Positions 812 through 19,241 of a stretch of DNA of 20,000 bases are shown one piece after another. Below the pieces are notes generated by a model. It was not told the DNA's origin. It did no database searches and was given only the letters and a program-made list of their open reading frames with translations. The position numbers and the translations under genes are program-made. The DNA is from an uncultured virus (IMG/VR IMGVR_UViG_3300014656_005142). Lineage: Duplodnaviria > Heunggongvirae > Uroviricota > Caudoviricetes. Numbering within the stretch: position 1 is the first letter of the stretch; each line of letters opens with the position of its first letter. The DNA is taken from the IMG/VR virus record IMGVR_UViG_3300014656_005142. One strand, given 5' to 3'.

Positions 812-1060
812 GTGGATGTGAATAAGATCTTAACTGACGAAGAAGTCTATAAGAGTTTTCTTTACAAGAGAATTGTTTTAGGATCTTTTGTTGCTTTTTT
901 TTCTGGAGTGTTTACAAGTATGGGAGTTTATTTAGTTTCAGATAACCGAATTATATTTGGAATAGTTTTGTTTGTAGTTTCTCTTGTTTTATTATTTGCT
1001 TCTATTGCTTGGGGAGCATATAAGCTTTTTGAAGAAGAGAAAGAAGAAGAAGGAGAGTAA
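812..1060 (+). CDS. small membrane protein with two predicted TM helices
   Basis: AGGAGGA SD at ~799-805. Hydrophobic stretches IVLGSFVAFFSGVFTSMGVYLV and IIFGIVLFVVSLVLLFASIAWGA; acidic tail. Confidence 0.65.
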   Translation: MDVNKILTDEEVYKSFLYKRIVLGSFVAFFSGVFTSMGVYLVSDNRIIFGIVLFVVSLVLLFASIAWGAYKLFEEEKEEEGE

Positions 1061-1061
1061 A

Positions 1062-1301
1062 ATGAATTCTAGAAATATCAGCATTGAAGAAAATTATATA
1101 AGACTGATTCCCACTGTTGGTCCTAATTTCATCAAACTTCAAGTGGAAATAAGTGATTGGGGAAGATTTGTTGCTGAATTGAATAAAATTAGAGATGGAG
1201 GGAAGATTCACCTTAGAGATAATTCTAATGATAAGATGATTGTTCTGCTAGAAATAAATAATAACATAATGGGAACTAGGAGGTTAGCAGATGAGGGATG
1301 A
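1062..1301 (+). CDS. hypothetical protein (79 aa; start revised from 984 to ATG 1062)
   Basis: AGGAG SD and TAAAATG junction at the stop of the previous gene; overlaps the next start. Confidence 0.6.
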   Translation: MNSRNISIEENYIRLIPTVGPNFIKLQVEISDWGRFVAELNKIRDGGKIHLRDNSNDKMIVLLEINNNIMGTRRLADEG

Positions 1302-2439
1302 TTTTTTATCAGTAGTTTGCGATGGAATAGGAGATTGTTACAAAGATCTTACTCGGTCTGTCTATGACGAAGGAGATATTGTTGTTTCTAGAGGGCTAGA
1401 GACTAAAGAGATAAGACCTTTTGTTTTAATCCTAAATAAGCCGCAAGAAAGATTTCTTATGTGTCCTGGCAGGAAAGCTAATATCTTTTTCCAGGTTTTA
1501 GAGAGCATATGGATTTTAGGAGGAAGAGGAGATCTTGAATTTATCTCATACTATCTTAAGAATATGCAAGCATATGCAGATAATAAAGAAGAATTTCACG
1601 CTCCATATGGAATTCGAATGAGACATGTTGGAAAACATAGAGAAATGTATTATGATAGTTACGGGTTTCATGATCAATTAAAACATTGTTATGAATATTT
1701 GAAAAAAGATCCTGATACAAGACATGCAGTTATGTCTTTTTGGGATCCCGTTTTCGATAATTATCAAGTGAAAACAAATGACAGACCGTGCAATATCGCA
1801 TTTCATCTTCTTATTCGGGATGGAAAGTTGGATTTTACAATTTTCAACAGAAGTAACGATCTTCACTGGGGATTGGCAAATACTAATGTTGTTCAATTCT
1901 CCGTGATTCTCGAAGCAATGGGAATGTTACTTTCTATTCCAGTAGGAAATCAGATTCATATATCGAATTCTTTACATTATTATACGGATAGTCTTCTCAC
2001 TAAAAGTGTTTTAGATGCAGAATATGAATTTAATCCATATGAGCATATTGAGCCTCTCCCTTTTGAAATGGAATTCAAAACAGAAGATAGATTAGCGGAT
2101 CTAGATGAAGAGTTAGAGTTATTTTTTAAGTTAGAAGATAAAATAAGAAAAGGAACTGATGAAGAATCTGATATCGATCTTTCTTTTAATTTTTTACAAA
2201 TTGCTCTCATTTTATCTAGATCTTTTAAAGCTTATAAAGAAGAAAATTATAGAAAGGCTTACAGTTATATAGAAAGAATTGAAGCAGATGATATATTTGT
2301 TTCAGCAACAGAGTTTTTAGTTCGTAAGATTACAGAAGATCTTTTGAGAGATGAGATTTCTGTAACTGTTAAAGCAAGATTTCAGAAATTATTAGATGAA
2401 GAAATTAAACAAATAATTCATTTCATATTTAATCATTGA
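1291..2439 (+). CDS. thymidylate synthase superfamily enzyme, probable dUMP hydroxymethylase
   Basis: Motifs SRG, YGIR, DPDTRHAV, catalytic DRPCN (Cys codon 1789), NRSNDLHWGLANTN and SLHYY. RSNDxxWG and the long C-terminal extension fit phage pyrimidine hydroxymethylases rather than ThyA. Asn, not Asp, lies at the base-specificity position. Confidence 0.8.
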   Translation: MRDDFLSVVCDGIGDCYKDLTRSVYDEGDIVVSRGLETKEIRPFVLILNKPQERFLMCPGRKANIFFQVLESIWILGGRGDLEFISYYLKNMQAYADNKEEFHAPYGIRMRHVGKHREMYYDSYGFHDQLKHCYEYLKKDPDTRHAVMSFWDPVFDNYQVKTNDRPCNIAFHLLIRDGKLDFTIFNRSNDLHWGLANTNVVQFSVILEAMGMLLSIPVGNQIHISNSLHYYTDSLLTKSVLDAEYEFNPYEHIEPLPFEMEFKTEDRLADLDEELELFFKLEDKIRKGTDEESDIDLSFNFLQIALILSRSFKAYKEENYRKAYSYIERIEADDIFVSATEFLVRKITEDLLRDEISVTVKARFQKLLDEEIKQIIHFIFNH

Positions 2440-2458
2440 AAATGAAGGAATATTATAT

Positions 2459-5400
2459 ATGAACCCACCTCCCCTGCACGTTCACGATCATTTTTCAACT
2501 CTCGACGGAGTTCCTTCTCCTGAATCTTATCTTGAATTATGTGATGAGCTAGAAATCCCTGCTATAGCTTTTACCAATCACGGCAATTTATCTAGTCATG
2601 CTCAGGCTTCTATAGAATCTAAAAAATATAAAACCAAAGTCATTCTTGGAATAGAAGCTTATGTTTCTAGAAGCATAAAAGAAATTAATCTTTTAAGAAA
2701 TAAAACAGATGAAGAAAGTAAGAATAAGCTTAAAAAACAAAGAGGAACATATCATATTATCTTACTTGCCAAAAATAAAGAAGGCTATCAGAATCTCATT
2801 AGACTTAATAATGAATCTTGGACAAAAGGGTTTTATTATCGTAATAGGATTGACTTTGGACTCATCAAAAAATATTCTTCTGGATTAATTTCATTGTCTG
2901 CTTGTTCCTCCGGAGTAATAAGTAAACTTTTATTGCAAGATAGAGACAAGGCTGCTGAAAAAGTTGCAACGTATTTTAGAGACACATTTGGAGAAGATTT
3001 CTATTTAGAACTACAGCTTATAGATTATGAACCTCAGAATGTTGCAAACAGTAAACTAATTCCATTGGGAAAAAAACTTGATATTCCTTTTGTTCTCACA
3101 AATGACGTACATTTTTTAAGAAGGGGAGATGACAGGCTACAATCTGTACTCATCCAGTTAGCCACAAAGGGAAAGTTTGAGATGAAGGCTAAAGAGCTTT
3201 ATTTAAAAACTCTTTCTGATTATGAAGAAAATTTTAAGAACCAAAGTATTATTCCCAGAGATATTTTTGTAGAATCCATTGATAATACTTTCAAAATAGC
3301 TGATAAATGTAACTATCAAGTAGAAACCGGCAACTTATATTTTCCTGAATTTAATCATAAAGAACATTTTTTATATAACAAATTTCCATTAGAAGATAAG
3401 AAAGAATTCTTTAAAAAGATAGTTCTTTATAGAGCTAAAAGAATACTGGGGAATAAGTTCAGTGATGAAGTTTATAGAAAGAGAATCAAGAGTGAATATA
3501 ATACTATTTCTTCTTTGGGAGGAATTGATTACTTTCTAATAGTCGATGATCTACTTCATTTTATTAGAGAAAATAAAGCCTTTACTGTTATAAGAGGATC
3601 TGCTAATGGAAGTCTTATTGCTTTCATATTAGAGTTCGGGCTTATAGATCCCATTAAACATAATATAATGTTTGAAAGATTTATAAGCAAACATAGAAGT
3701 CTTAATGATATTGATATAGACATAGATGTAAGATCTGAGTTTAGACAAAAAGCTATAGATTATCTTAAGAATAAATATGGAAATGATAGAGTTCTATCTA
3801 TAGGAACTTATAATAGAATGCAGCTTAAAGGAGCAATTAAAGACATAACGAGAGTGTTCAAGGAGAGGCTTGATGAAAAAATAGCTAAAACTAAAGATGA
3901 AGCGAAAGCTGAACGCCTTGCAGAGAAACAATCTGAATATCTCTTTCCTGTTATCAATAGAGTCACTTCTATTATGGAAGGAGACTTAGATGTAGAAACT
4001 GCTAGAAGAAATCATGAAATTTTTAACAAGTGGTACGAAAGAAATAGCAAGTTGATGCAGAGATATATAGAGCCGGTAATAGGAAATATCAAAAACGTAT
4101 CTCTTCATCCCGCTGGAATAGTTATTATTCCTGAGAAGGCTGATAATCTTCTTCCCATAAGAACTCAGGCTCATCCTCATGATCCTAAGAAAAGAGTTAT
4201 TGCTACAGCTTGGGAAAATTCTCATACGGGTAGAGAAGATTTAAATGAAATAGGAGTTATGGTATTAGATATTTTAGGAGTTAAAACTTTATCTGTTGTT
4301 TCTGAAGTGATAAGTCTGGTAAAGAAAACTCGAGGGATCGATATAGATATTTCTAAAATATCTCTTGAAGATAAAAAGACTTTAGATATGTTTAATAGGA
4401 AAGAATTGATAGGAGTGTTTCAGTTTTCAGGAGGAGCAGCTTCTCAGATAGTTGATATAACAAATATAACAGAGTTTAATGATCTTATAGTTATTAATGC
4501 CTTAGCCAGACCAGGAGCTCTAGGAGCTAAAGCGGAACAGGATTTTGCAGAAAGAAAGAAAAATCCTAAACTTGTCAGGTATGATCATCATTCTCTTAAA
4601 GATATTCTAGGAGATTCTTTGGGGGTATTAGTATTCTCAGAACATATTTTAAGAACAGCTTCAGAATTTGCAGGAATGCCTCTTAAAGAAGCAGATACTC
4701 TTAGGAAAATTATTAAAAGTAAGAGTCCAGAAGTTTTTAAAAAGTATAGATCTATTTTTATTAAAGGGGCTATGAAGAAATGGAAAAAAGATAAGAACAT
4801 TAAAGAGATAGCTAAAAATATATGGAATAAATTTTCTAAAGCAGGGAGTTATTTATTCCCCAGGGGACATGCTGCGAGTTATGCTCTCCTTGGGTATATA
4901 TGTCAATATCTTAAAGTTCATTATCCTATAGAATTTTTTACATGTCATTTAAGATATGCTGAGCAGAAGAAATATGGAAAGATCAGAGATGTTGCTCAGT
5001 CAGTGCATGGAATTAAGTTTAAAATGCCCACTATACTTACCCCTTGTTTAAAGTTTGAGACTAGTGTAGACCACATTAGATGGCCTCTGACCGGCCTTAA
5101 AAGCGTGGGTAGTAAAGCTGTTGGTAGCATAGTTGCAAATGTTCCTTATTCTTCTTTTGAAGATTTTTATAACAAGGTAGATAAAAGAGTTTGTAATAAG
5201 AGAGTCGTGACTAATTTAATTATAGCTGGTGTATTTTCAGAATTTGGAAATAAGAGAGCTATAATGGGTAAATATATAGAACTCAGGAAAGATAAAAATA
5301 AAGATCTTCCTATTGCCTTTTCTTCTAAGAATTTATTAGCTGCTGAAATGGAAAATATTTATGGATTTGAATTAGAATCTATAGAAAAGATGTATCGTGA

Positions 5401-5749
5401 ACAACTAAAGCCGTATAGGAAATTATTAACCAGCAGTAAGGAATTCTTTGAAGCTGATGCTGGAGATCAAATTGTTCTTTTTGGAAGGGTTGAAAAAATT
5501 AATCCCATAGTCACTAAGAAGGGAGATAAGATGGCGTTTTGTAGTCTTAAGGGGATTGAAGATATATATAATATCACTTTATTTCCTAAGACTTATGAAT
5601 TTGCTAAAGATTATTTCAAGAAAAATAATGTACTAGTCATATCTGGCAAAAAAAATATTTACAATAGCGAACATTCTCTTATATTAGAGGTTTCTGATAG
5701 AGGAAAAGTGATTGGATTCAAGGATAAAAATTGGGCGATAAAACTATAG
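2459..5749 (+). CDS. dnaE: DNA polymerase III alpha subunit (family C)
   Basis: PHP domain (LHVH..S.LDG, TNHGN, GIEAY, HIILLAKN, LSAC, TNDVH); RGSANGS; FERF; DIDIDID palm; HPAG; LDILG; GVFQF; ARPG; HhH (LKSVG); C-terminal OB fold (TKKGDKMAF). Confidence 0.96.
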   Translation: MNPPPLHVHDHFSTLDGVPSPESYLELCDELEIPAIAFTNHGNLSSHAQASIESKKYKTKVILGIEAYVSRSIKEINLLRNKTDEESKNKLKKQRGTYHIILLAKNKEGYQNLIRLNNESWTKGFYYRNRIDFGLIKKYSSGLISLSACSSGVISKLLLQDRDKAAEKVATYFRDTFGEDFYLELQLIDYEPQNVANSKLIPLGKKLDIPFVLTNDVHFLRRGDDRLQSVLIQLATKGKFEMKAKELYLKTLSDYEENFKNQSIIPRDIFVESIDNTFKIADKCNYQVETGNLYFPEFNHKEHFLYNKFPLEDKKEFFKKIVLYRAKRILGNKFSDEVYRKRIKSEYNTISSLGGIDYFLIVDDLLHFIRENKAFTVIRGSANGSLIAFILEFGLIDPIKHNIMFERFISKHRSLNDIDIDIDVRSEFRQKAIDYLKNKYGNDRVLSIGTYNRMQLKGAIKDITRVFKERLDEKIAKTKDEAKAERLAEKQSEYLFPVINRVTSIMEGDLDVETARRNHEIFNKWYERNSKLMQRYIEPVIGNIKNVSLHPAGIVIIPEKADNLLPIRTQAHPHDPKKRVIATAWENSHTGREDLNEIGVMVLDILGVKTLSVVSEVISLVKKTRGIDIDISKISLEDKKTLDMFNRKELIGVFQFSGGAASQIVDITNITEFNDLIVINALARPGALGAKAEQDFAERKKNPKLVRYDHHSLKDILGDSLGVLVFSEHILRTASEFAGMPLKEADTLRKIIKSKSPEVFKKYRSIFIKGAMKKWKKDKNIKEIAKNIWNKFSKAGSYLFPRGHAASYALLGYICQYLKVHYPIEFFTCHLRYAEQKKYGKIRDVAQSVHGIKFKMPTILTPCLKFETSVDHIRWPLTGLKSVGSKAVGSIVANVPYSSFEDFYNKVDKRVCNKRVVTNLIIAGVFSEFGNKRAIMGKYIELRKDKNKDLPIAFSSKNLLAAEMENIYGFELESIEKMYREQLKPYRKLLTSSKEFFEADAGDQIVLFGRVEKINPIVTKKGDKMAFCSLKGIEDIYNITLFPKTYEFAKDYFKKNNVLVISGKKNIYNSEHSLILEVSDRGKVIGFKDKNWAIKL

Positions 5750-5919
5750 CTTTTCTATTTGTAGCTGTTAAAGCTTTAAGAGAAATTCATGATACTCAGG
5801 GCAGAGTGTGTCCGGTATATGAAATATGTGAACAAAAATCTTGTAAGGGCAGCTATGAATCTTGGATTATTGCAGATAAGGCTTTGAAAGAACTAGAATT
5901 ACTGGTAAAAGAGAAATAA
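5731..5919 (+). CDS. small hypothetical protein with three Cys
   Basis: TTG start after AAGGA; fills the gap between dnaE and the next gene; CPVYEICEQKSC. Confidence 0.5.
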   Translation: MGDKTIAFLFVAVKALREIHDTQGRVCPVYEICEQKSCKGSYESWIIADKALKELELLVKEK

Positions 5920-5925
5920 CGGAAT

Positions 5926-6621
5926 ATGGATATTTTTAAAAATAAATTAGTTGATGATATTTCAGACTTTCATCCCACTGAAAGAAAAAAGAATTGGAGT
6001 TTCGAAGTATTATCTCATTTTGGAGAAGTTGGGGCGATAATAAAATCTGTAATAATGGGAGTTTCTTTTACCAGCCTTACAGAAGAAGTATATGGATTTA
6101 ATTCTATAAGATCTGGATTGATAAAAGAGTTTACTGATCTTAGTTATGATTCTTTTATGAATATTCTCAATCATTATTCTGGATATTATAATGTGTTCAT
6201 TAAAGAATTTATTGAAAGTGTTTTAAAAAAATCTTTTATCAAAAGAGACTACAGAAAACTTTTAGAAATTAATAATACTTTAAATAGAGAGTATATAAAA
6301 ATTATTCATGAAAAGAATAATAGATATGATTCTAATGCTTTGCAGATTTTGGGATTTTTTCCTAAAGATAATAGGTGGAAAGATTTTGGATATTTTCCTA
6401 GAGATCTTTCTTCTTTTATTTTTACAGAATTTGGTTTACAAAATTCTTTATTAATAGGATTTGAGAAAAAAGGGGAGAGAAATCTTATTTTAACAATCTT
6501 GTGTAACAAGAATGGATTTGCAAATAAAATAATAGAAGATAAATTTGTTGAAAATAAGAAAGAATTTGAGTTTCTAGATCTTAGAAAGTTAAGAGAAAAA
6601 TTATCTGTGCAAGGGGGGTGA
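5926..6621 (+). CDS. divergent HIRAN-domain protein with internal insertion
   Basis: KSVIMGVSF...IKIIHEKNNRYDSNALQI...FGYFPRDLSSFI aligns by eye to the HIRAN consensus (i.Gv.f, L.REP.N.yD.NAi.V, iGYvPr..a) and to the downstream gene. Confidence 0.65.
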   Translation: MDIFKNKLVDDISDFHPTERKKNWSFEVLSHFGEVGAIIKSVIMGVSFTSLTEEVYGFNSIRSGLIKEFTDLSYDSFMNILNHYSGYYNVFIKEFIESVLKKSFIKRDYRKLLEINNTLNREYIKIIHEKNNRYDSNALQILGFFPKDNRWKDFGYFPRDLSSFIFTEFGLQNSLLIGFEKKGERNLILTILCNKNGFANKIIEDKFVENKKEFEFLDLRKLREKLSVQGG

Positions 6622-6968
6622 TTAATATTATCACTAAAATAGTCGGGGTGACGTTTAGAAATTTGGAATACAATATTAATAGGCAGGATATAATTAAACA
6701 ATTATCTGGAAAAGAAAAAGTTTCTCTTAGAAGAGAACCAAAGAATAGATTTGATACTAATGCTGTGGCTGTATATGTAGATCTTAGTAGTAAGAAATAT
6801 AAAATAGGATATCTAAAAGCTGAACTTGCAGGAATAGTTGCAGAAATGTGGAAAGACTATAGATTCGTTTCCAGCATTTCTGAAATAAGAATGGGAGATG
6901 AGGAAAAGAATATTTCTTGGGGAATTTCTCTTGAAATTAAAAAGGCTAGATTAAGAAAATATGAATAA
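6618..6968 (+). CDS. HIRAN domain protein
   Basis: TKIVGVTFRN...VSLRREPKNRFDTNAVAV...KIGYLKAELA is a canonical HIRAN signature; GTGA overlap with the upstream gene. Confidence 0.9.
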   Translation: MINIITKIVGVTFRNLEYNINRQDIIKQLSGKEKVSLRREPKNRFDTNAVAVYVDLSSKKYKIGYLKAELAGIVAEMWKDYRFVSSISEIRMGDEEKNISWGISLEIKKARLRKYE

Positions 6969-6982
6969 AAGGATTCAATATT

Positions 6983-7357
6983 ATGCCTATTTATAATTAT
7001 GAATGTAAGAGTTGTGGATATTCTTTTGAAAGAATAGAAAAGATCACTTCTCTTTCTTGGAAAGAAGTTTCTAAAATTAGAATAAGATGTCCTAGGTGTA
7101 ATCAGAAGAAATCTAAAAGAATTGTAGAATCTTTTAAAGTGGGATCTAAGATTTTAGAAACTAGAAATAAATCTGGCTATCAAACAGATGAACTCACTTT
7201 GGGGAAGATGATAGATGAAGGAGGAGTTCCTTATGAATATAAAGAAGATCTTAGAAAAAGAAGAGAAATAATTACACGGCAAAATGAATATAATAAGGGC
7301 CTTTTAGAAAGAGCTAGAAAATATAAATTTGATCCTTTTAGTGAAGATGAATCTTAG
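6983..7357 (+). CDS. FmdB-family zinc ribbon protein with C-terminal extension
   Basis: MPIYNYECKSCGYSFE...CPRC signature. Confidence 0.85.
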   Translation: MPIYNYECKSCGYSFERIEKITSLSWKEVSKIRIRCPRCNQKKSKRIVESFKVGSKILETRNKSGYQTDELTLGKMIDEGGVPYEYKEDLRKRREIITRQNEYNKGLLERARKYKFDPFSEDES

Positions 7358-7775
7358 ATATATAGAAATAGAAGATAAAGTGAAGGAAGCAGGATTTAGA
7401 AATTTTGCTTCTTTCTATTTTACTTACTATTATAATAAAGATTCTAAAACAACTCTTAAAGGGAGTGCTAGAATTTTAGGAGTTTCTGAATATAAATTAA
7501 GAACTTCTGTTTTGGAAAGAAACTGGCCTATTAAAAGCAGATCAACTTGTTCCAGAACGAAACATAGAAAAAGAAGATTGTATATATGGGAAAAGGTAAA
7601 GATGAATACTCCTTTTATTTTTCCTTGGTGCGCTATTAATTATTATTATAATAGATGTCTGCTTACAACTTATGAGGTAGGAAAAGTAATAGGAATAAGT
7701 CAATTTTCTGTAATAAAACTTATGAACAAATATAAAATGGATAGGAGGAAGCAGGGATCTTATGAAAAAAGATAA
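7347..7775 (+). CDS. DNA-binding protein with two tandem HTH-like repeats (start revised to ATG 7347)
   Basis: Internal duplication: EDKVK..F..YYYN..TLKGSARILGVSEYKL and WEKVK..F..YYYN..TTYEVGKVIGISQFSV. Confidence 0.65.
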   Translation: MNLRYIEIEDKVKEAGFRNFASFYFTYYYNKDSKTTLKGSARILGVSEYKLRTSVLERNWPIKSRSTCSRTKHRKRRLYIWEKVKMNTPFIFPWCAINYYYNRCLLTTYEVGKVIGISQFSVIKLMNKYKMDRRKQGSYEKR

Positions 7776-8394
7776 TGAAATATTAGATTTTCTTAGAAGA
7801 GCTAGAAGGTTGAGTTATATAGAAAGATGTAGTAATACTATTCATATAAAACCTTATAGTGTCGCAGAGCATTCTTTCTATATAGCTTTATATACTATGA
7901 TATTTGCAGATTTAGAGAATGAAAGAATTGGTGAAGAGATTTATGATGTAGGAAGTATAAGTAATTCCTCAAGTAATATTAAAAAGACATATGATGTTTT
8001 TGAAGCTGTAAGAAAAGCTTTAGTTCATGATCTTGAAGAGAGTGAGACAGGAGATATTCTATATCCTATGAGGAATATGGATTCAGATCTTAGAGATAAA
8101 ATTAATGAGGTTAGAGATATTTGTGTAAACAAGGTAGTCTTTTCTGAATTACCTGTAAATGTAAGAAATTATTATATTAGGTTATGGTCGACATCGAAAG
8201 ATGATAGTAAAGAAGGAATATTAGTAGCGGCTATGGATAAATTCGAGATTCTGATGTTTGCAATAGATGAATTAGATATTGGAAACAAGGCTTTTTTAAA
8301 GATGTATAAAGATGTTAAGGAAATATTATTCCAATTTACTATCCCTTCTTTACTGTCTGTGTTAGATAAAATAGAATCAATTTATGGAAAATGA
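7762..8394 (+). CDS. HD-domain 5'-deoxynucleotidase / dNTPase, YfbR/DatZ-like
   Basis: LSYIER, SVAEHSF, ALVHDLEESETGDI and EG..V..MDKFE match the YfbR-type HD motifs. Confidence 0.88.
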   Translation: MKKDNEILDFLRRARRLSYIERCSNTIHIKPYSVAEHSFYIALYTMIFADLENERIGEEIYDVGSISNSSSNIKKTYDVFEAVRKALVHDLEESETGDILYPMRNMDSDLRDKINEVRDICVNKVVFSELPVNVRNYYIRLWSTSKDDSKEGILVAAMDKFEILMFAIDELDIGNKAFLKMYKDVKEILFQFTIPSLLSVLDKIESIYGK

Positions 8395-8425
8395 TTCTAA
8401 ATTTAAAAGAAAGGAGGTGAATCTT

Positions 8426-8797
8426 ATGGGATTATCTTTAGGAGATGTTGCTGGAGAAGTATTTCTTAGGATTGATAGTGTGGAAGGGCTTCCTAAGCTA
8501 AAGAAGACTGGAGTTTATGAAATTCTCAAGGCTTCTTTTGATGTAATTACTCAAGCTGTATCTGCGGGAGAACCTGTTTCTATTTCTTATTTTGGAAAGT
8601 TTACTCCCTATATTAAAGCAGCTAGGAAAGCTAGGAATCCCCATACGGGTCTATCAGTTTCTGTTCCAGAAAAAACCGTTGTTAAATTTAGGCCGAGTAG
8701 TGCTCTTAGAGAATCTGCTCTTTCTGCTCTTGGAAATCTTAAAGAGTCTTCTAAGAAGGAAGAGAAGAAACCTCTCAAGAAGAAGAAAAAGAAGTAA
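8426..8797 (+). CDS. HU/IHF-family DNA-binding protein with Lys-rich tail (start revised to ATG 8426)
   Basis: GEPVSISYFGKF...ARKARNPHTG..V.VPEK.VVKFRPS; AAGGAGGTGA SD at 8411-8420. Confidence 0.92.
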   Translation: MGLSLGDVAGEVFLRIDSVEGLPKLKKTGVYEILKASFDVITQAVSAGEPVSISYFGKFTPYIKAARKARNPHTGLSVSVPEKTVVKFRPSSALRESALSALGNLKESSKKEEKKPLKKKKKK

Positions 8798-8860: not shown

Positions 8861-9418
8861 ATGAAACAGACAGTTGGAAAATTTCAGAAATCTAAACTTA
8901 AAAGAGAAATTGCAGGAAAGCTTTTCGAAGATCTTACTAAAATTACATTCACTTTTAAGACTAAGACCTTTGAAGTGGATTTGACTGAAGAGCTCCTGAT
9001 AACTCCTGACAATTTATCTTTGCAGATAGAGAAGATTCCTGCTATTATGGGATATTTAGGTTCTGTTGTGGCTATTGTTGAAAGGGAATCTAGGGATAAG
9101 GAAGATTTAAAGAAAAAAATAGAGGCATCTATAGATAATAAAATAAGAAGAGATGGAGTTGTTGGGGAAGCTAGAATCGAAAAGGCTTTAAGAAGACATC
9201 CTAATTGGATAGATGCATGTATAGAAGTTAATAGGTCTAAGGAAAAATTGGAGATTGCTAGAAGCTTATATGTTGCTCTTAAGATTAAGTTTGAAGCATT
9301 GAAAATAAGAGCTAATGATATTAGGAATGTTCCAGGAGATTCTATCATGGGGGTAAATAAAAAAGAAGTTATTAAAGTGACTAGAATGTCAAAATTCGAT
9401 GAAGGGAATTCTATTTAA
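8861..9418 (+). CDS. UvsY-like recombination mediator protein
   Basis: Helical protein (DL.EEL.I..DNL...P....Y...IEKAL..HP.W...AL..K...L) resembling phage UvsY-like proteins; lies directly before SSB and RecA. Confidence 0.65.
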   Translation: MKQTVGKFQKSKLKREIAGKLFEDLTKITFTFKTKTFEVDLTEELLITPDNLSLQIEKIPAIMGYLGSVVAIVERESRDKEDLKKKIEASIDNKIRRDGVVGEARIEKALRRHPNWIDACIEVNRSKEKLEIARSLYVALKIKFEALKIRANDIRNVPGDSIMGVNKKEVIKVTRMSKFDEGNSI

Positions 9419-9461: not shown

Positions 9462-10616
9462 ATGGGTAAATTTAGTCTTGAAGGAATGAAGAAGAAAAAG
9501 GGAGAGATTAAGAAACAGAAGGAGAAACAAGCTGAAAGGATTAACTTTGTAAGGAGGCATTCTGCTGTTGATGGAAAGAATATTTTTAGGTTTAAAGAAA
9601 CTAATACTGGAGGAGAATATCCTTGGGAAGAAATGGGTCTTCATTACAGATGTGGTCCTAATAAAGATCAAACTGTAAGATGCTTGAGAGATGTAATTGG
9701 AGAAGCAGATGGAATAAAAGATATAGCAAAATGTCCTCAGTGTGTTGAAGTAGATTCTTATTATAAAAAAGGAGGAGAAAGATATAAAGCTTTAGCTGGA
9801 ATTAAAGGAAGAAAACATCGTGTTTTATTAGAAGGAATAAATCTCACTTCCCTTGTAGAAAATTTCGAGAATGACAATGTTCCAGACCCTAAAAAGTGTT
9901 TTGGAAATTTTGTCTTCAGAGAAGAGGATGAAGGGTTTAAAAAATGTAAAATCTGTATTAATAAAGATCCTTGGGGAATGGTATGTAAGTCTGGATTAGG
10001 ATATTTAACTATAGGCCCAACCCTTGGAGAACCTCTTGTTAATCAGGCATATAAAATAGGAAAATCTCTAAAACATAACCCTTTTTCTTTAAAAAATGGA
10101 CATAATTTTGAGTTCAATAAATCGGGAGAAGAGCTTCTTACTAAGTATTCAGATATAGGATTTTCTTTAGATTCTTATAATCTTCCTCTAGTAGTTAAGG
10201 TTTTCATGAAAGATAATTCTTTAGATTGGTCTAGAGTTTATCCCAAAGTAGGCAAGGAAGAGATGTCAGCTTCAATGGAAGGAGTTGAACCAGAGATTGA
10301 AGATGTAGAAGAAGAGGATCTTGAAGAAGAAGAAAAAGAAACTGAGGAGGAAGAAGAAGTAGAAGAGGAGGATGCTGAAGAGGAAGAAGAGACTGAGGAA
10401 GAAGAAGTAGAAGAAGAAGCTGAGGAGGAGGAAGAAGAAGAACCCGAAGAAGAAGAGGAAGTTGAAGAAGAGGAAGAAGAGGAAGAAGAGGATGAAGAAT
10501 TCTTTAAAGAAATAGAGGATGAATTGGAGAAAGAAAAGAAGTCTTCCCTTTCAGAAAAATTAAAAAAGCAGGCAGAAGATAAGAAGATAAAGATTAAGAA
10601 AAAGATTAAAAAGTAA
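9462..10616 (+). CDS. T4 gp32-like single-stranded DNA-binding protein
   Basis: GKNIFRF; H..(RC)..CPQC zinc-site pattern; GHNFEFNKSG...TKY; long acidic C-terminal region; AAGGAGG SD; position between UvsY-like and RecA genes. Confidence 0.72.
   Translation: MGKFSLEGMKKKKGEIKKQKEKQAERINFVRRHSAVDGKNIFRFKETNTGGEYPWEEMGLHYRCGPNKDQTVRCLRDVIGEADGIKDIAKCPQCVEVDSYYKKGGERYKALAGIKGRKHRVLLEGINLTSLVENFENDNVPDPKKCFGNFVFREEDEGFKKCKICINKDPWGMVCKSGLGYLTIGPTLGEPLVNQAYKIGKSLKHNPFSLKNGHNFEFNKSGEELLTKYSDIGFSLDSYNLPLVVKVFMKDNSLDWSRVYPKVGKEEMSASMEGVEPEIEDVEEEDLEEEEKETEEEEEVEEEDAEEEEETEEEEVEEEAEEEEEEEPEEEEEVEEEEEEEEEDEEFFKEIEDELEKEKKSSLSEKLKKQAEDKKIKIKKKIKK
10290..10493 (+). repeat. four imperfect 51-nt (17-aa) Glu-rich tandem units in the SSB tail
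   Basis: Units start at 10290, 10341, 10392 and 10443: PEIEDVEEEDLEEEEKE / TEEEEEVEEEDAEEEEE / TEEEEVEEEAEEEEEEE / PEEEEEVEEEEEEEEED. Confidence 0.7.
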
Positions 10617-10636: not shown

Positions 10637-11668
10637 ATGTCATCAGAAATGGCTGAGAAATTAGTAGCTGGTGTAAATAAGGCTAGGAAAGAAGAATCTA
10701 TGTTACTCATGAGTGATCCCAAGACTCCTATTACTGTGGATGATGTATTATCTACAGGACTTCCTAATCTAGATAGAATTTTAGCTTGTTCTATTAATGG
10801 AAAGTGGGGACTTCCTGTAGGCCGCATAGTTGGAATCAAATCTAAGCCAAGCGTTGGGAAGACTTCTTTTGTTCTAGGAATTGCTAGAGAAGTTCAGAAA
10901 AGGGGAGGATTAGTTCATATTGTAGAATCTGAACATGCTCTAGATCTTGAGTATATAAGAAAACTTAAATGCAACGTAGAAGATTTTATGATTTCTCAGC
11001 CAGATAATTTGGAAGAGTCTTTTGAAATAATAGAGAATGCTGTAGAATTATGTGTTAATCTAAGAGAAAAATATGATAATCAGGCTCCTTTCTTAATAAT
11101 AATGGATTCCTTTTCAGGATTTCAAACGGAGTCTGAGATGGGTTCTGGATATGGTAGTAGTGGTGGGTTAGCGGAACATGCGAGAGTTGCTTCTAGGGCC
11201 TGTAGGAAGCTGACAGGCCCTATTAAAAAAGCGAAAGCCCTTTTACTGGTTGTTCACCAAATTAAATCTAAGATAGGAATGACATGGGGTAATCCAGAAA
11301 CTCATATTGGCGGAGATGCTTTTCGTTTTCATGATTCTATAGAAATTTCTCTATATAGAACAACTTCATTAAAGTCAGGAACTCAAATCTTAGGCCATTA
11401 TGGAACAGCTAGAACAACTAAGAATAAATTGTATCCCCCCTTTAGAGAAGCTAAGTTTAAAATAATAAATGGAAAAGGATTTGATAGAAATTTTGCTATT
11501 CTTGAATTTTTATTAAGCGAAAAAGAAATAAAGAAAAGGGGAGGATGGTTTACTTTCAGAAGAAGTCCTGAAATTAGATTTCAGGGAAGTTCTAGCTTTT
11601 TTGATCTTTTGAGAGAAGATAAATCGACTAGAATGTTGGTTAGAAAAATTTTATCGGAGAAAACTTAA
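10637..11668 (+). CDS. recA: RecA-family recombinase
   Basis: STG...LD, GLPVGRIV, Walker A SKPSVGKT, ESEHALD, SQPDNLE, Walker B IIMDS, GGDAFRF, KNKL.PPF, KKRGGWF. Confidence 0.95.
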   Translation: MSSEMAEKLVAGVNKARKEESMLLMSDPKTPITVDDVLSTGLPNLDRILACSINGKWGLPVGRIVGIKSKPSVGKTSFVLGIAREVQKRGGLVHIVESEHALDLEYIRKLKCNVEDFMISQPDNLEESFEIIENAVELCVNLREKYDNQAPFLIIMDSFSGFQTESEMGSGYGSSGGLAEHARVASRACRKLTGPIKKAKALLLVVHQIKSKIGMTWGNPETHIGGDAFRFHDSIEISLYRTTSLKSGTQILGHYGTARTTKNKLYPPFREAKFKIINGKGFDRNFAILEFLLSEKEIKKRGGWFTFRRSPEIRFQGSSSFFDLLREDKSTRMLVRKILSEKT

Positions 11669-11674: not shown

Positions 11675-11947
11675 ATGAATAAAAATAATACTAAACCTAT
11701 AAGAAAAATTGCATATAATTTGTTGGAAGGAACAATAAAGTTTTTTTTCATAGTTTATATTTCTACGTCTAGTAAGTTTTTAATTAATAAAGAATCTAGA
11801 AAAGAAGAGAGTTTAAATATTTTGTTGAATAAGATTGATGAAGAAACTAAAGATTTTATGAAAATATTAAATAGAAATCTTGAAATTAAATCTGATTTAT
11901 TAGCTGAAATTTTATCTAAAAATATAAATGAAAAAGAAAAAATCTAA
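11675..11947 (+). CDS. hypothetical protein
   Basis: ORF fills the recA-sbcD gap and overlaps the sbcD start. Confidence 0.55.
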   Translation: MNKNNTKPIRKIAYNLLEGTIKFFFIVYISTSSKFLINKESRKEESLNILLNKIDEETKDFMKILNRNLEIKSDLLAEILSKNINEKEKI

Positions 11948-13037
11948 AATAAGGATAGCTGCTCTTGCAGATCTTCATATTACTTCTCGCCTACCCTATA
12001 CCCCTATTGGGGATTCTTTCAGGAAAGATAAACTCATAGAGTTTTTTCATCATTCGTTTAAAATAATTGTAGAGAAAAAAGTTGATATAATTATGGTGGC
12101 TGGAGATATTTTACATCAAACTGCTGTTGATCCTGATGGATTAGATTTGCTTACCTGTTTTGTTGAGCTTTCTCGTATTTCTGGAATCCCGAACATAGTA
12201 GTCTCAGGAAATCATGACATAGATAGAAAAGATTCTATTCTAAAATTTTTGAAACGTATAAATCAGGATCGTGTAATCTTTCATTATTCTCCTAAGACAA
12301 GTGAATATATTTTTGCAGATCTTAATATCAGAGTTGTGGCTATTCCTTCTATGAGTGAAAAGTTATTTGTGAAGAAAGCCATAGAAGAAGGAATACTGGA
12401 AAAAGATCGGAGATCAGAAAGCTTCTATAATATTTTACTAGGACATCAAGGAATAAAAGGAGCAGTGCATGGATCTCTAGAAAGTTTTCATGGAATAGAA
12501 AAGAAAGATATTGAGAAGATATCTAAACTCTATGATCTTATTTTGTTGGGACATTTTCATAAGTTTCAGGCTATATGTGAAAATGGAATTTTCATAGGAC
12601 CCATTCAGCAGACAAGAATTGATGAAGTTAGTATTGATCCAGGATTTATTATAATAGATTTACCAGATATGAAGATTGTCCATATAGAAAATAAATTGAG
12701 TCCCAGATTTAAGATTATAGAATATGGATCTTCTATTGTTGGAAGTGAAATGGAAGGAAATATAGTTAAGCCTATAATTGATCCAGAAAATAATACAGAA
12801 GAAGAAAATAAGAAATTTATATCTGATATAAGAATATGTGATCCTTATTATCTTATTCAACCTAAGTTAAAGAAGACTTATAGCTTAACAAAGAATTATA
12901 AGAAAAAAGAATCTTTAACAAAAGAGGAGGTGATTTTAAAGACTTTAAAAAATATGAATATCAGAGAAGAGAGAAGAGAAGAAATTGAAAAAGAAACTTT
13001 AGATTTCTATAGGAGGATGAGCGATGGGAATTTATGA
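11928..13037 (+). CDS. sbcD: SbcD/Mre11 (gp47-like) metallophosphoesterase nuclease
   Basis: Phosphoesterase motifs ADLH, AGDI, SGNHD, GHQ and LGHFH. Confidence 0.92.
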   Translation: MKKKKSKIRIAALADLHITSRLPYTPIGDSFRKDKLIEFFHHSFKIIVEKKVDIIMVAGDILHQTAVDPDGLDLLTCFVELSRISGIPNIVVSGNHDIDRKDSILKFLKRINQDRVIFHYSPKTSEYIFADLNIRVVAIPSMSEKLFVKKAIEEGILEKDRRSESFYNILLGHQGIKGAVHGSLESFHGIEKKDIEKISKLYDLILLGHFHKFQAICENGIFIGPIQQTRIDEVSIDPGFIIIDLPDMKIVHIENKLSPRFKIIEYGSSIVGSEMEGNIVKPIIDPENNTEEENKKFISDIRICDPYYLIQPKLKKTYSLTKNYKKKESLTKEEVILKTLKNMNIREERREEIEKETLDFYRRMSDGNL

Positions 13038-15055: not shown

Positions 15056-16990
15056 ATGTTCAAACTCCTCAAATTAGAAGCTTATAATTTTGTTCTCTAT
15101 AAAAAACTCAAAATAGATTTCAGTAATCTTTCTGATAATCTCGTATTTATAGTAGGAGAGAACAAAGAGACTGCTGGAAGTGATTCTAATGGTTGTGGTA
15201 AATCTTTAATCGGAGATCTTCTAACTGATCTTCTTTTTGATGATACTATAAGAAAACATTCTCCAGATTCTTTTGTGGGAAGGTTTGATTACTATTATAG
15301 AGGATATCTTTCTATTCTAGATGAAGATACTAAAGATATCTTTCATATCAGTAAATATAGAAATCACCCTGTTCATAAAAGTAAAGTTAGATTTATAAAA
15401 GAATCTTCTACCGGAGAAAAGAAAAATCTTTCTAGAAAGAAGAGATCGGATACTTATAAAGTTATAGGAGAATCTCTGAATATAAATTGGAAAACTTTTA
15501 AGAATAGAAATTTCTTTGGGCAGAATGATCTTAAGAGATTCCTAGATGTTCCTGATTCTATGAAAGGGGAAATAATTTCTGATATTCAGGATCTAACTGA
15601 TCTTCAAAAGTGTAAAGATAAGTCTCATAAACTCTTCCGAGAAGAAGTTAAAAAAGTAGAAGATATAGAACAAAGAATGCAGATATTATCTGCTTCCATA
15701 GAAGTCATTAAAAATAACAAGAAAAAAATTACTGAAGAATTAAATTCTAGAAAAAAAGCAAGCAAAATAAGAATAGAACAACTTAAGAAGGAATGCATTT
15801 CTATTAAAGAAAAAATTAAATATGCTCTATCTCAATCTAAAGGAATGGATTCTTTAAGAAAGAAATTATCTGTTCTTAAAACTGATATAGATAATTTCAA
15901 TAAGTTGTTGAATACTATAGGGAATATTCGTTCAAAGATATATGATACCAAGGAATCTATTTCTGTTTTTTCTTCTCAAAAAGAATCTATTCAAGAAAAT
16001 ATTTTTGGTAAAAAGAAGTCTCAATCTGATATAAAGCTGGATAAAATTAAGAAATGTGGATATTGTGGTGCAGGATTAAAAGAATATAAAAGAAAATCTA
16101 CTTTGTTATCTTACTATGAAAATGAAATAGAAAAACTTAGTGCAAAAGATTTTAACTTATCTGAAACACTTGTAAATTTAAAAGAAGAGTTTAAATCTAA
16201 AGAAGAAATTTTAAAGAAATTAGATAAAGAAAAGAATTCTTTTATTCCCGTAGTTAATAAAAGAGAAAAGCTCTTAAATGATCTAAGAATTAAAGAAAAA
16301 TGGAATTTTCAGAAGAAATCTTTTGTTTCCGAATTCAATATTAAGAAAAAGATGATCAGTGAATATTTAAAAGAATATAAAGGTTCAGAGAATAACTCTG
16401 TTCTTATATCTTTAGATTCAGATGAAAAGATTAAGGTTAATCAACTTAACCAGAAGCAAAGAGAGTTAAAAGAAATCAGTGATCAGAAAGAAAAGTATGA
16501 AATAATGGAGAATGCTTATGAGTTGTCTATGAGAAAGATGTTCAGTGATTTTTTAGACCAGCTTAATTTCTTTTCTAATTATTTCCTAGGAATTCTATCT
16601 GAAAATGATGTATCGGTAGTCTTTAGTCCTAAAAAGAAGTTAAAGAGTAAGAAAATAGTAGATGAAATTACAGTAAGAGTGAGCGTTAACAAAGATAAAC
16701 CTAGAGATATAAGAACATATTCTGGAGGAGAAAAGAGTAGAATAAATATATCTACTCAGTTAAGTCTTTTTTCTTCAGCAGATTCCCCTATGGCTCTTTT
16801 GTTTTTTGATGAACCCTTCGTTGGGGTTGATAAAGAAGGGAGAGACAGAATAATTCAAATTCTAAGAGAAAGAGCAGACGAAGGAACGTTGATTATAGTG
16901 ATAAGTCATGAAGATATTGTTAGAGGCTATGGGAATATGTTGAATGTTGTAAGAGATAATGGTCGAAGTCTTGTCCAGGCGATAGAATGA
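15056..16990 (+). CDS. sbcC: SbcC/Rad50 (gp46-like) SMC-family ATPase
   Basis: Walker A GEN...SNGCGKS, Q-loop FFGQ, coiled coils with zinc hook CGYC, signature YSGGE, Walker B/D-loop FFDEPFVGVD, H-loop ISHE. Confidence 0.94.
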   Translation: MFKLLKLEAYNFVLYKKLKIDFSNLSDNLVFIVGENKETAGSDSNGCGKSLIGDLLTDLLFDDTIRKHSPDSFVGRFDYYYRGYLSILDEDTKDIFHISKYRNHPVHKSKVRFIKESSTGEKKNLSRKKRSDTYKVIGESLNINWKTFKNRNFFGQNDLKRFLDVPDSMKGEIISDIQDLTDLQKCKDKSHKLFREEVKKVEDIEQRMQILSASIEVIKNNKKKITEELNSRKKASKIRIEQLKKECISIKEKIKYALSQSKGMDSLRKKLSVLKTDIDNFNKLLNTIGNIRSKIYDTKESISVFSSQKESIQENIFGKKKSQSDIKLDKIKKCGYCGAGLKEYKRKSTLLSYYENEIEKLSAKDFNLSETLVNLKEEFKSKEEILKKLDKEKNSFIPVVNKREKLLNDLRIKEKWNFQKKSFVSEFNIKKKMISEYLKEYKGSENNSVLISLDSDEKIKVNQLNQKQRELKEISDQKEKYEIMENAYELSMRKMFSDFLDQLNFFSNYFLGILSENDVSVVFSPKKKLKSKKIVDEITVRVSVNKDKPRDIRTYSGGEKSRINISTQLSLFSSADSPMALLFFDEPFVGVDKEGRDRIIQILRERADEGTLIIVISHEDIVRGYGNMLNVVRDNGRSLVQAIE

Positions 16991-17052: not shown

Positions 17053-17778
17053 ATGGTAAGACAAAAACACAGATCTGTAGTTCAACAAAGAGAAAAGTTT
17101 ATAATTGGCTGTAAGTTTATAGATAAAGCCAGAAAAGAATATTGCAAAAACTCCTTTATATCTTTAGGTATAGATCCTTCTTTAAGTTCTACAGGATGGT
17201 CTTTAAGATCAAGCAAGGGGGGAGTTAAGTTTGGAGCTATTGTTCCTAAGTCTTGGGGATTTTCCAGGATGATCTATATAGAAAATATTATTAAGAAAAT
17301 CTTTAAAAGTTATGATCCCTTTGTAGGAATAGAAAATTATTCTTTTGGAGCTAAGTGGGGAAGAGAAAAAGCTGGAGAATTAGGAGGGGTAATAAGAAGA
17401 ACTTTATTTATCTACAAGAGACCTCTTTTGTTAATTGCTCCTCTCAGTATTAAATCTTGGGTGAAGGTTAGTCAGAAAAATCAGATTATGCTTGAGATAT
17501 TTGATCGCTATAAAGTTAAGATAAATAATGATGATGCAGCAGATGCTTTTATTTTGTCTGAAATGATAAGATCTGTTTTGTATATGGCCCATGATATCGT
17601 TGAAAGAAAATTCAGTGCCGAGGATGTGAAGGATTATCTTAAGAACGAAGAATATAAGGATACTACTCCAGAGTTAGATAAACTTTTTAAATATCAGGCG
17701 AATTCTATTTTTAATTTAATAGCTGAACATGGAAAAGAATGTGTGTTTTTTTCTAAAGCTTCTCCTGGATTCTTTTAG
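17053..17778 (+). CDS. ruvC: RuvC-like Holliday junction resolvase
   Basis: SLGIDPSLSSTGW, VGIENYSFG, GELGGV, AP..IK...K, NDDAADAF. Confidence 0.88.
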   Translation: MVRQKHRSVVQQREKFIIGCKFIDKARKEYCKNSFISLGIDPSLSSTGWSLRSSKGGVKFGAIVPKSWGFSRMIYIENIIKKIFKSYDPFVGIENYSFGAKWGREKAGELGGVIRRTLFIYKRPLLLIAPLSIKSWVKVSQKNQIMLEIFDRYKVKINNDDAADAFILSEMIRSVLYMAHDIVERKFSAEDVKDYLKNEEYKDTTPELDKLFKYQANSIFNLIAEHGKECVFFSKASPGFF

Positions 17779-18640: not shown

Positions 18641-18865
18641 ATGAATAAAGATACTGAAAGAATAGATTGGTTACAAAAGAATCAAGGAAAAGCTTTAGTG
18701 AGTGATGATTGTGGACATTGGGCTGTTGTAGAAGATGGAATGCAAAATGTTCCTGACAATTCTCCTAATGATATTCATACTACTTTTTTTATTAAAAAGA
18801 AAGAATGGAAAAAGACTATAAGGAAAGCTATAGATTATGCTATTAAAGAAGAAAAAGGGGGATAA
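18641..18865 (+). CDS. small hypothetical phage protein
   Basis: AAGGAG SD; DTERIDWL...IRKAID pattern typical of small phage proteins. Confidence 0.7.
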   Translation: MNKDTERIDWLQKNQGKALVSDDCGHWAVVEDGMQNVPDNSPNDIHTTFFIKKKEWKKTIRKAIDYAIKEEKGG

Positions 18866-18866
18866 A

Positions 18867-19241
18867 ATGTCTAAACCCAAAGAATATCAAGACAAATGGG
18901 TCGTGTATCTTTTGGAATGTTCTGATGGAACATACTATTGTGGAGTTACAAATAATATATATTGGCGATTAGAAGAGCATAATGAAGGAGAAGGAGCAAA
19001 ATATACAAGAGGAAGAACCCCTGTTGATTTGATTGCAATATCTCCAAGAATGTCTAGATCATCCGCTCTTCAAATGGAAATCTTGGTAAAGAAACAAAAG
19101 AAAGAAAATAAAATAATACCATTTGTTTCCATTTGGAGATTAAAGATGCTTGAGATAGAAACCCTCAATGAACAGTTAGATAGATTAGGTTGTTGGAAGA
19201 TAAGAGATTTATTTAAAAATGGAAAAGTTGAATTCTTATAG
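18867..19241 (+). CDS. GIY-YIG nuclease, UPF0213 (YhbQ/YazA) type (start revised to ATG 18867)
   Basis: WVVYLLECSDGTYYCGVTNN...RLEEHNEGEGAKYTRGRTPV...RSSALQME..VKK. Confidence 0.92.
   Translation: MSKPKEYQDKWVVYLLECSDGTYYCGVTNNIYWRLEEHNEGEGAKYTRGRTPVDLIAISPRMSRSSALQMEILVKKQKKENKIIPFVSIWRLKMLEIETLNEQLDRLGCWKIRDLFKNGKVEFL

Follow-up and report, generated by a model that had tools for sequence, protein, structure and literature searches.

Does a thymidylate-synthase-like gene that directly precedes a phage dnaE gene serve the synthesis of thymidylate, or of a nucleotide that takes the place of thymine? The question is raised by a 20,000-nucleotide (nt) stretch of DNA from an uncultured virus of the Caudoviricetes (IMG/VR record IMGVR_UViG_3300014656_005142; the whole stretch is hereafter referred to as the window). 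It contains, on one strand, a gene for a protein of the thymidylate synthase (TS) fold (1291..2439), dnaE for a family C DNA polymerase and a gene for an HD-domain phosphohydrolase. An initial annotation of the window had proposed that the phage makes 5-hydroxymethyl-dUMP (hm-dUMP), depletes thymine nucleotides with the HD enzyme and replicates with DnaE a genome in which 5-hydroxymethyluracil (hmU) replaces thymine. As described below, the locus is notable chiefly for the wide conservation of the hydroxymethylase-DnaE-HD trio among uncultivated phages, and the three genes probably enable such phages to build DNA without ordinary thymine. The arrangement would be a variant of the known SPO1-type thymine-replacement pathway with a family C polymerase.

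Assignment of the TS-fold protein

The translated product of 1291..2439 carries the motifs PCN and RSNDLHWG, from which a TS-fold enzyme had been annotated; they stand in the segments DRPCNIAFH and FNRSNDLHWGLANTNVVQF. The protein matches PF00303 (Thymidylat_synt; E = 6e-19, 68.7 bits against a cut-off of 24.3) and phrog_5131 (1.3e-78), and the Pfam E-values of the TS-fold, DnaE and HD proteins all lie far beyond chance. Its TGA codon occupies 2437-2439 and the ATG of dnaE begins at 2459, leaving exactly the 19-nt spacer that had been annotated. The best named matches in the phage collection were proteins of SPO1, SP8, SP82G, CampHawk and SP-10 (43-45% identity over residues 14-261, E = 2e-50 to 6e-58), with 44% identity to SPO1 gp29. 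In a search of 5.8 billion proteins, the 46 closest were unnamed metagenome proteins (315-411 amino acids, 35-58% identity), and the next was SPO1 gp29, whose UniRef name is 'Deoxyuridylate hydroxymethyltransferase' (DUHM_). The lengths of the window, gp29 and SP-10 enzymes are 382, 383 and 382 amino acids, respectively. Seven NCBIfam equivalog models of canonical ThyA scored 32-64 bits against cut-offs of 108-427 (for instance, 64.2 bits versus 174.55). In a sequence search of the PDB, the CMP hydroxymethylase MilA was the best match (3e-20), and ThyA entries followed at 1e-13 to 1e-8.

Alignment with Escherichia coli ThyA indicates that the protein retains the full set of nucleotide-binding and catalytic residues. 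It has the catalytic Cys167 (PCN) and Arg187-Ser188-x-Asp190 (RSND), and the equivalents of ThyA R21, E58, Y94, C146, R166, S167, D169, N177, H207 and Y209 are all kept (site string REQ-YCNRSDNHY). The equivalents of ThyA W80 and H147 are Gln and Asn, and both are likewise replaced in gp29; among 197 aligned sequences, Trp in the W80 column is confined to four ThyA sequences and T4 gp42. Residues N177 of ThyA and D179 of gp42 set the preference for uracil versus cytosine. The specificity segment of the window protein had been described as lacking Asp, and N199 indeed aligns with ThyA N177: in one alignment (A2) it shares a column with the Asn of ThyA, SPO1 gp29 and Ab18 ORF14, where gp42 has Asp. 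N199 is invariant across a 28-sequence alignment (A1), and Asn fills the N177 column in 196 of 197 family members aligned with MAFFT, gp42 being offset by one column there and showing Tyr. In the HMMER alignment, the MilA residue that faces N199 is Asp. The window enzyme thus has Asn at the uracil/cytosine discriminator site, where both T4 gp42 and MilA have Asp.

The initial annotation had called for a tree with ThyA, the SPO1 enzyme and gp42, and had named clustering with ThyA as the outcome contrary to its proposal. We built two trees from rows thinned to less than 62% mutual identity, and the protein did not cluster with ThyA. In the more careful IQ-TREE analysis (47 rows, gp42 being excluded on account of its long branch), the four ThyA sequences stood apart from a 43-row clade with support of 100/100 and a branch length of 2.91. 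Within that clade, the window protein fell into a 9-row clade with proteins of its three closest relatives (100/99; L001-L003, see below), which joined the SPO1/SP-10 clade (100/99) in a 19-row clade (94/92). A quick tree (48 rows, LG+C20) that included gp42 also separated ThyA, at 96, and gave gp42 a very long branch (7.3); its 43-row clade (91) contained the window protein together with SPO1 gp29, the SP-10 enzyme (188), and homologues from the ViI-like phage Det7, the M6-like phages Ab18 and PAE1, and phages Molly and P26218. The joining of Det7 and Molly was flagged as a possible long-branch artefact.

An AlphaFold2 model from the 28-sequence alignment (pLDDT 91.2, pTM 0.92) has a TS-fold catalytic domain at about residues 1-250 and a C-terminal helical domain at about residues 260-382, with helices at 267-381. 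This extension of about 130 residues beyond the TS core superposes on MilA (345 aligned columns). The seven best Foldseek chains were all MilA (E down to 2.8e-20, TMq 0.68-0.72, TMt 0.81-0.85, 337-346 columns), whereas ThyA chains came next, with TMq of about 0.5 over about 260 columns. Since the MilA matches take in the helical domain, the model points to the two-domain architecture of a hydroxymethylase. Taken together, these results place the gene within the SPO1 gp29 lineage of TS-fold enzymes, as judged by its sequence, and its product is probably a gp29-type dUMP hydroxymethylase.

DnaE, the HD protein and the HU protein

The dnaE product has the Pfam domains PHP, DNA_pol3_alpha, finger, HHH_6 and OB with near full-length profile coverage, matches phrog_405 (1.8e-234) and, in alignment, conserves the catalytic Asp residues D401, D403 and D555 of E. 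coli DnaE.

The initial annotation had also placed an HD nucleotidase in the same gene run, which agrees with a YfbR-like open reading frame (ORF) at 7762..8394 on the + strand. Its product matches PF12917 (4.3e-27, 95.4 bits, cut-off 25.9) and, in the PDB, Lin2634 (3mzo, 1.9e-13) and E. coli YfbR (2paq, 9.3e-06). EHS, HDLEESETGD (motif HDxxExxTGD) and a later Asp are in register with both structures, and we take the aligned YfbR residues to be metal-binding and catalytic. The protein matched just 15 phage records, and SPO1-like phages were not among them. The 15 include the Yersinia phages vB_Yru_GN1 and YerA41; phages of the YerA41 type presumably have heavily modified DNA that is hard to sequence. 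The HD protein is the obvious candidate for an enzyme that depletes thymine nucleotides.

The HU-family protein encoded after the HD gene is 29% identical to TF1 of SPO1 (E = 9e-09). TF1 prefers hmU-containing DNA. As in the window, the genes for TF1 and for its SP-10 homologue lie 3′ of the hydroxymethylase gene.

Conservation of the gene trio in uncultivated phages

Searching IMG/VR with the TS-fold protein alone yielded no relative; an alignment-based scan found 169, and the best 80 loci were analysed. The three closest, L001-L003 (47-55% identity, on contigs of 84, 88 and 122 kilobases (kb)), are syntenic with the window from the ORF at 171-761 through the HD, HU and gp33-like genes and onward as far as the sequence of each locus extends, and have DnaE orthologues (55-61% identical) directly after the TS gene. 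A DnaE match was present in 73 of 81 loci by tblastn (the 80 IMG/VR loci and that of Ab18) and in 70 of 80 by phmmer on ORFs; in the latter, the DnaE start lay nearly always at -85 to +27 nt from the TS stop codon. HD ORFs were found with a purpose-built iterated hidden Markov model (HMM) in 63 of the 80 loci, and all ten sampled ORFs matched PF12917 above its cut-off.

Linkage was counted in the 66 loci whose sequence extends 5 kb or more past the TS gene. DnaE was encoded on the same strand, starting -100 to +1300 nt from the TS stop codon, in 64 of them, and 61 had DnaE plus an HD ORF further 3′. The two loci without such a DnaE were L056, with the HD gene straight after TS, and L009, with neither gene. 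The 14 shorter loci included six with DnaE. After thinning for the tree, 14 of 19 IMG/VR rows were DnaE-linked, and these fell into three separate clades. The hydroxymethylase, DnaE and HD genes therefore constitute a cassette conserved across a large number of uncultivated phages; far from being peculiar to the window, the TS-DnaE pairing is widespread among uncultivated phage contigs.

In some loci, the DnaE gene linked to the hydroxymethylase is broken into two ORFs or overlong: L004 (a 146,652-base contig) has one of 1820 amino acids, and the summed lengths are 1460-1523 amino acids in L008, L013, L029, L033 and L046. This suggests inteins or homing-endonuclease insertions; a LAGLIDADG/intein-bearing ORF of 1305 amino acids is also present in the genome behind L003.

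We found no cultured phage with the complete trio, the full match lists not having been intersected. When the hydroxymethylase of L072, from the large DnaE-linked clade, was used as a query, the best cultured matches were again SPO1-like phages. Several candidates were rejected. The human-gut DnaE contig MT835885 (15.9 kb) lacks a TS homologue; in Moorella phage MTATph1, none of the genes annotated in the 15 kb around DnaE is a TS gene; the TS of Gordonia phage Sixama is not of the gp29 type, being a 282-amino-acid product encoded beside thymidylate kinase and dCMP deaminase genes; and the suspicion that M6/YuA-like Pseudomonas phages encode DnaE, in which case the pairing would not be new, was dismissed, since Ab18 and PAE1 encode PolA. 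Full-text literature searches, with subscription-only papers outside their reach, returned no paper linking a gp29-type hydroxymethylase to DnaE, and the available parts of PMC8008677, PMC8989533 and PMC7824862 hold no description of such a coupling. The Gratiaviridae have DnaG, DnaE, SbcCD and RecA (Benler et al., PMC8008677, in the part available); the main text of that paper contains none of the terms hydroxymethyl, thymidylate synthase and dUMP.

Comparison with known systems

The gene order in SPO1 is gp29, three small genes, TF1 and the polymerase gp31, and that in SP-10 is hydroxymethylase, a replication gene, the HU-family gene and polymerase. Besides belonging to the same enzyme lineage, with Asn at the discriminator and in a sister clade, the window thus shares with SPO1 the proximity of hydroxymethylase and polymerase genes. 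It differs from SPO1 in its polymerase, DnaE instead of gp31, and in the HD 5′-deoxynucleotidase of its gene run; none was found in a 16.7-kb stretch of SPO1. The SPO1 and SP-10 polymerases are annotated only as 'DNA polymerase', and we assume that both (gp31 in SPO1) are of family A. Like SPO1, the window phage would make hm-dUMP, remove thymine nucleotides and replicate with its own polymerase; the hmU pathway comprises dUMP hydroxymethylase, dTTPase, dTMPase, dCMP deaminase, dNMP kinase and a phage polymerase (PMC8989533, in the part available).

The M6-like and Ab18-like Pseudomonas phages (Yuavirus, Abidjanvirus), Rhodoferax phage P26218 and the uncultivated phage MW202557 resemble the window in the hydroxymethylase clade, in the HD family coupled to it and in having a polymerase gene within a few kb. 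In Ab18, PAE1 and P26218, a YfbR-like PF12917 gene directly follows the TS homologue, with PolA a few genes on in the first two and a few genes upstream in P26218; in MW202557, a kinase gene, 'pyrimidine hmase' and an annotated HD hydrolase follow one another. These gene orders agree with the claimed tie between the HD enzyme and the hydroxymethylase. The PolA-type polymerases of these phages are unlike the DnaE of the window, and the family A annotations in Ab18, PAE1 and P26218 support the earlier statement that cultured phages of the hmU lineage use other polymerases. In contrast to the M6-/Ab18-like phages, the window has its polymerase gene between the hydroxymethylase and HD genes. PAE1 in addition has a 5-hydroxymethyl-deoxyuridine (5-hmdU) DNA kinase (PF18748, Orf47) for hypermodification, whereas such a kinase was not detected in the window.

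In T4, gene 42 lies two genes from gene 43, so that a TS-fold hydroxymethylase is again encoded near the replicative polymerase (gp43, family B), and the base is replaced before replication. Gp42 differs in being cytosine-specific (Asp discriminator) and only 246 amino acids long, in lacking the C-terminal helical domain and in its very long tree branch, and T4 excludes the canonical nucleotide through the dCTPase gp56, not an HD enzyme. Because it is shared by the cultured phages compared, linkage of hydroxymethylase and polymerase genes is general, and the window is set apart by the family of its polymerase. MilA (PDB 5jnh, 5b6d), the best match by structure and by PDB sequence, is only about 22% identical, has Asp opposite N199, acts on CMP and belongs to a bacterial antibiotic pathway rather than to phage replication. 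A parallel is offered by the Z-genome phages (PurZ, DatZ, MazZ, DpoZ), which also cluster genes for a biosynthetic enzyme of the replacement nucleotide, for an HD hydrolase directed against the canonical one and for a dedicated polymerase; they differ in replacing adenine with 2-aminoadenine, in their enzyme families except for the HD fold and in their PolA-type polymerase.

In Maribacter phage Molly_5 (MT732455.1, 4246-9005; our locus L104), genes for a UDP-glucose dehydrogenase-family protein, an epimerase and a 'beta glucosyl transferase' lie directly 5′ of the TS homologue, which belongs to the hydroxymethylase clade and has Asn at the discriminator. Among cultured phages, Molly is thus a possible candidate for having a glycosylated hydroxymethyl-pyrimidine.

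Proposed mechanism and its alternatives

In the mechanism that we propose, the TS-fold enzyme would add the methylene group of 5,10-methylene-tetrahydrofolate to C5 of dUMP via Cys167, and water, rather than hydride transfer, would resolve the intermediate, yielding hm-dUMP and tetrahydrofolate. With tetrahydrofolate as the product, no dihydrofolate reductase (DHFR) would be needed. Kinases would raise hm-dUMP to hm-dUTP, the HD enzyme would dephosphorylate thymine deoxynucleotides (dTMP, possibly others) and so keep dTTP out of the pool, and DnaE would incorporate hm-dUTP opposite A. The HU protein may have the role of TF1 in SPO1, packaging or organising hmU-DNA, and hmU may either be the end product or be modified further by the products of genes beyond the window. 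We consider this mechanism as a whole, comprising hm-dUMP synthesis, HD-mediated thymine-nucleotide depletion and replication by DnaE, to be likely from the gene content.

Folate metabolism bears on the first step. A hydroxymethylase regenerates tetrahydrofolate, whereas ThyA yields dihydrofolate and depends on DHFR. DHFR was encoded within two genes of canonical phage ThyA in all four contexts inspected (T4, Matisse, Grass and an SPbeta-like phage), while none was found in the 80 loci (three-sequence HMM) or in the contigs of three relatives (G001-G003, 62-89% complete, G003 being the genome behind L003; PF00186, with a working control), which have one TS-fold gene each. This absence agrees with a hydroxymethylase and is supportive only, as the sample is small and a host DHFR could serve.

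Several observations weigh against the proposal. We know of no residue that separates hydroxymethylases from methylases with certainty, and the assignment of the window enzyme therefore rests on clade membership and 44% identity to one characterised enzyme. The Pfam and PHROG scans of the window found no dCMP deaminase, dUTPase, or dNMP or dTMP kinase, a dCMP deaminase was present in one of the three relatives (G002), and dUTPase (PF00692) and thymidylate kinase (PF02223) were in none of G001-G003. A dTTPase was likewise absent from the Pfam and PHROG matches of the 20-kb window. The HD protein scores below the cut-off of the NCBIfam YfbR equivalog NF003009 (43.1 versus 122 bits) and is for that reason a family member, not a YfbR orthologue. 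Its best PHROG is labelled dATP triphosphohydrolase, others being T5-type dNMP phosphatase, and its similarity to the HD proteins of PAE1 and P26218 is weak (pairwise BLASTP E = 0.002 and 2e-06, respectively). HD 5′-deoxynucleotidases also occur in phages without modified bases, such as Dmp of T5. Finally, the 80 loci were picked by similarity to the window protein and roughly a quarter come from one dataset, so that the linkage counts overstate the number of independent lineages.

These points leave room for other readings of the enzyme and of its partner. The enzyme could be a divergent genuine thymidylate synthase that makes dTMP, with the HD protein acting as a general deoxynucleotide phosphatase, for example in the turnover of host-DNA breakdown products. 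The catalytic residues common to ThyA and hydroxymethylases are all present, most database records of these proteins are labelled 'thymidylate synthase', and the lack of matches to ancillary hmU-pathway genes in the window would fit as well. The long, fully supported branch that separates the protein from canonical ThyA, the scores far under every ThyA equivalog cut-off, the missing W80 and H147 equivalents, a two-domain architecture nearer to MilA than to ThyA, and the DHFR counts all speak for a hydroxymethylase instead, as does the fact that every characterised lineage within the clade is an hmdU lineage; we regard a thymidylate synthase as improbable. Still less credible, to the point of being highly improbable, is hydroxymethylation of a cytosine nucleotide (dCMP or CMP), as by T4 gp42 or MilA. 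In both sequence and fold, the latter is indeed the top match in the PDB, but Asn199 stands where both of those enzymes carry Asp and is all but constant in the family, and the nearest characterised relative is a dUMP enzyme. If the enzyme is a dUMP hydroxymethylase, the HD protein might nevertheless serve another end, as a broad 5′-dNMPase, a dNTP triphosphohydrolase of other purpose or a counter-defence factor, with dTTP excluded otherwise or incompletely. Its assignment by family membership, the PHROG label and equivalog score given above, and the four genes that separate it from dnaE in the window would be compatible with this reading, which we find possible and on the whole somewhat unlikely. 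It sits less well with the tight, recurrent position of the HD gene 3′ of TS and DnaE, and with its being the next gene after that of the hydroxymethylase in L056 and in four phages that have PolA (two of Pseudomonas, one of Rhodoferax and one uncultivated). Phage dTMPase and dTTPase are, moreover, established parts of the hmU pathway (PMC8989533, in the part available).

A further alternative concerns the fate of hmdU, which might be only a precursor that is converted on the polymer to a hypermodified base, for example a glycosylated one, by products of genes outside the window. SP-10, ViI-like and M6-like phages of the same clade end with hypermodified thymidines derived from 5-hmdU (PMC8989533, in the part available). 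The contigs of the three closest relatives contain three, five and five genes of glycosyltransferase family GT2 (three in G001, five in G002). Among 145 ORFs scanned, G003 has at least 10 glycosyltransferase-family genes (GT1, GT2, GT9), a TagF-like glycerophosphotransferase, a cytidylyltransferase, a PfkB sugar kinase, an NAD epimerase/dehydratase, several methyltransferases, two radical-SAM enzymes and a protein of the uracil-DNA glycosylase (UDG) superfamily. Many of these genes are interleaved with replication genes (helicase, primase, DnaB), the sites being L087:18207-19328, L110, L088:51-10256, L088:15010-18488, L107, L090:7260-9275 and L086:1532-7413. The sugar-nucleotide and 'beta glucosyl transferase' genes beside the TS homologue of Molly point the same way. 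On the other side, no hypermodification gene was recognized among the window ORFs by Pfam or PHROG; no match to a 5-hmdU DNA kinase (PF18748) or to aGPT-Pplase was found among the 26 window ORFs or the 145 ORFs of G003, the PF18748 profile being one that does detect PAE1 Orf47; and a PF18748 search of G001-G003 gave no match, with a silent control. The glycosyltransferases of the relatives match general families only and could serve virion or host-envelope glycans, and the proteins of the relatives share only about 50% identity with those of the window. We hold hmdU as a mere precursor to be a tentative prospect, less probable than not. More generally, the glycosyltransferase-type genes of the relatives could have DNA, virions or the host envelope as targets.

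Implications

Phage DNA in which hmU or one of its derivatives takes the place of thymine is protected against restriction and other nucleases. To our knowledge, such replacement has so far been found in a handful of cultured phages with polymerases of families A or B. The operon-like hydroxymethylase-DnaE-HD trio in dozens of uncultivated contigs suggests that non-canonical thymine is much commoner in the virosphere than the cultured examples imply. It also predicts that family C polymerases can replicate hmU-DNA, and it provides, in the HD gene, a concrete candidate for thymine-nucleotide depletion in hmU phages. This would be relevant to metagenomics, since some methods under-recover or miscall modified DNA, and to enzyme engineering, as a possible source of a processive polymerase that accepts 5-substituted dUTP. 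As a speculation that we think unlikely to hold, the trio could be a mobile thymine-replacement cassette that marks a large unrecognised set of phages (about 40 to more than 140 kb) with a DnaE adapted to hm-dUTP, and in the lineage of the window the large glycosyltransferase complement of the relatives could further glycosylate hmU to give phage DNA resembling base J.

Gene run and other features of the window

The window covers the part of an uncultivated tailed phage genome that is devoted to replication and recombination (Table 1). Every accepted ORF, from 171 to 19847, lies on the + strand, and the G+C content is 27-35% (about 30%). Whole-window megablast against 50,697 phage records gave no match, and no tRNA gene was found in the window. 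AGGAGG precedes the ATG at 1291. In positions 1-10000, neither sigma-70 promoter-like sites (42 versus 45.9) nor terminator-like sites (4 versus 3.6) were commoner than in shuffled sequences, and for this reason we drew no operon boundaries.

Table 1. Coordinates of the genes and other features in the window
Feature	Position	Strand	Evidence
TS-fold protein, candidate SPO1 gp29-type dUMP hydroxymethylase, 382 amino acids, ATG start	1291..2439	+	PF00303, phrog_5131
Spacer of 19 nt with Shine-Dalgarno-like GAAGGA site for dnaE	2440..2458	+	Sequence reading
DnaE, family C DNA polymerase alpha subunit, 1096 amino acids	2459..5749	+	Five Pfam domains, phrog_405
231-amino-acid protein	5926..6621	+	Weak HIRAN match, PF08797 0.0028 (below cut-off)
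HIRAN-domain protein, 116 amino acids	6618..6968	+	PF08797 1.1e-12; kept in L001-L003
Zinc-ribbon protein, 124 amino acids	6983..7357	+	PF09723 2e-09; kept in L001-L003
148-amino-acid protein	7329..7775	+	No Pfam match; 34-48% identical in L001-L003
YfbR-like HD phosphohydrolase, 210 amino acids	7762..8394	+	PF12917
HU-family DNA-binding protein, 137 amino acids	8384..8797	+	PF00216 5.7e-21
Protein weakly matching T4 gp33-type late coactivator	8861..9418	+	PF16805 1.3e-04 (below cut-off), phrog_254 4e-05
384-amino-acid protein	9462..10616	+	No family match
RecA/UvsX	10637..11668	+	
SbcD	11928..13037	+	
SbcC	15056..16990	+	
RuvC-like resolvase	17053..17778	+	
GIY-YIG endonuclease, free-standing	18837..19241	+	PF01541 1.2e-16

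Two adjacent HIRAN-related ORFs, one with a weak and one with a clear match, come right after dnaE and are kept in the three relatives. HIRAN domains beside a phage DnaE are unusual. The protein in the position of the weaker one (5926..6621) in G003 matches HIRAN at 2.3e-07; the ORF is part of the gene run, and no role in base replacement is evident for it. The product of 7329..7775, whose G003 orthologue has a weak HTH_50 match (3.4e-05), is possibly DNA-binding.

The gp33-like ORF (8861..9418) is also kept in L001-L003, and G003 encodes a sigma-70 region-2 protein as well, which together hint at T4-like late transcription in a DnaE phage. The 384-residue protein of 9462..10616, kept in L001-L003, contains several Cys pairs and an extremely acidic, Glu-rich C-terminal tail of roughly 100 residues. 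By its position just 5′ of RecA/UvsX and its composition, it would resemble a single-strand DNA-binding protein of the gp32 type. The GIY-YIG gene at 18837..19241, which has no counterpart in the loci of the relatives, probably encodes a homing endonuclease.

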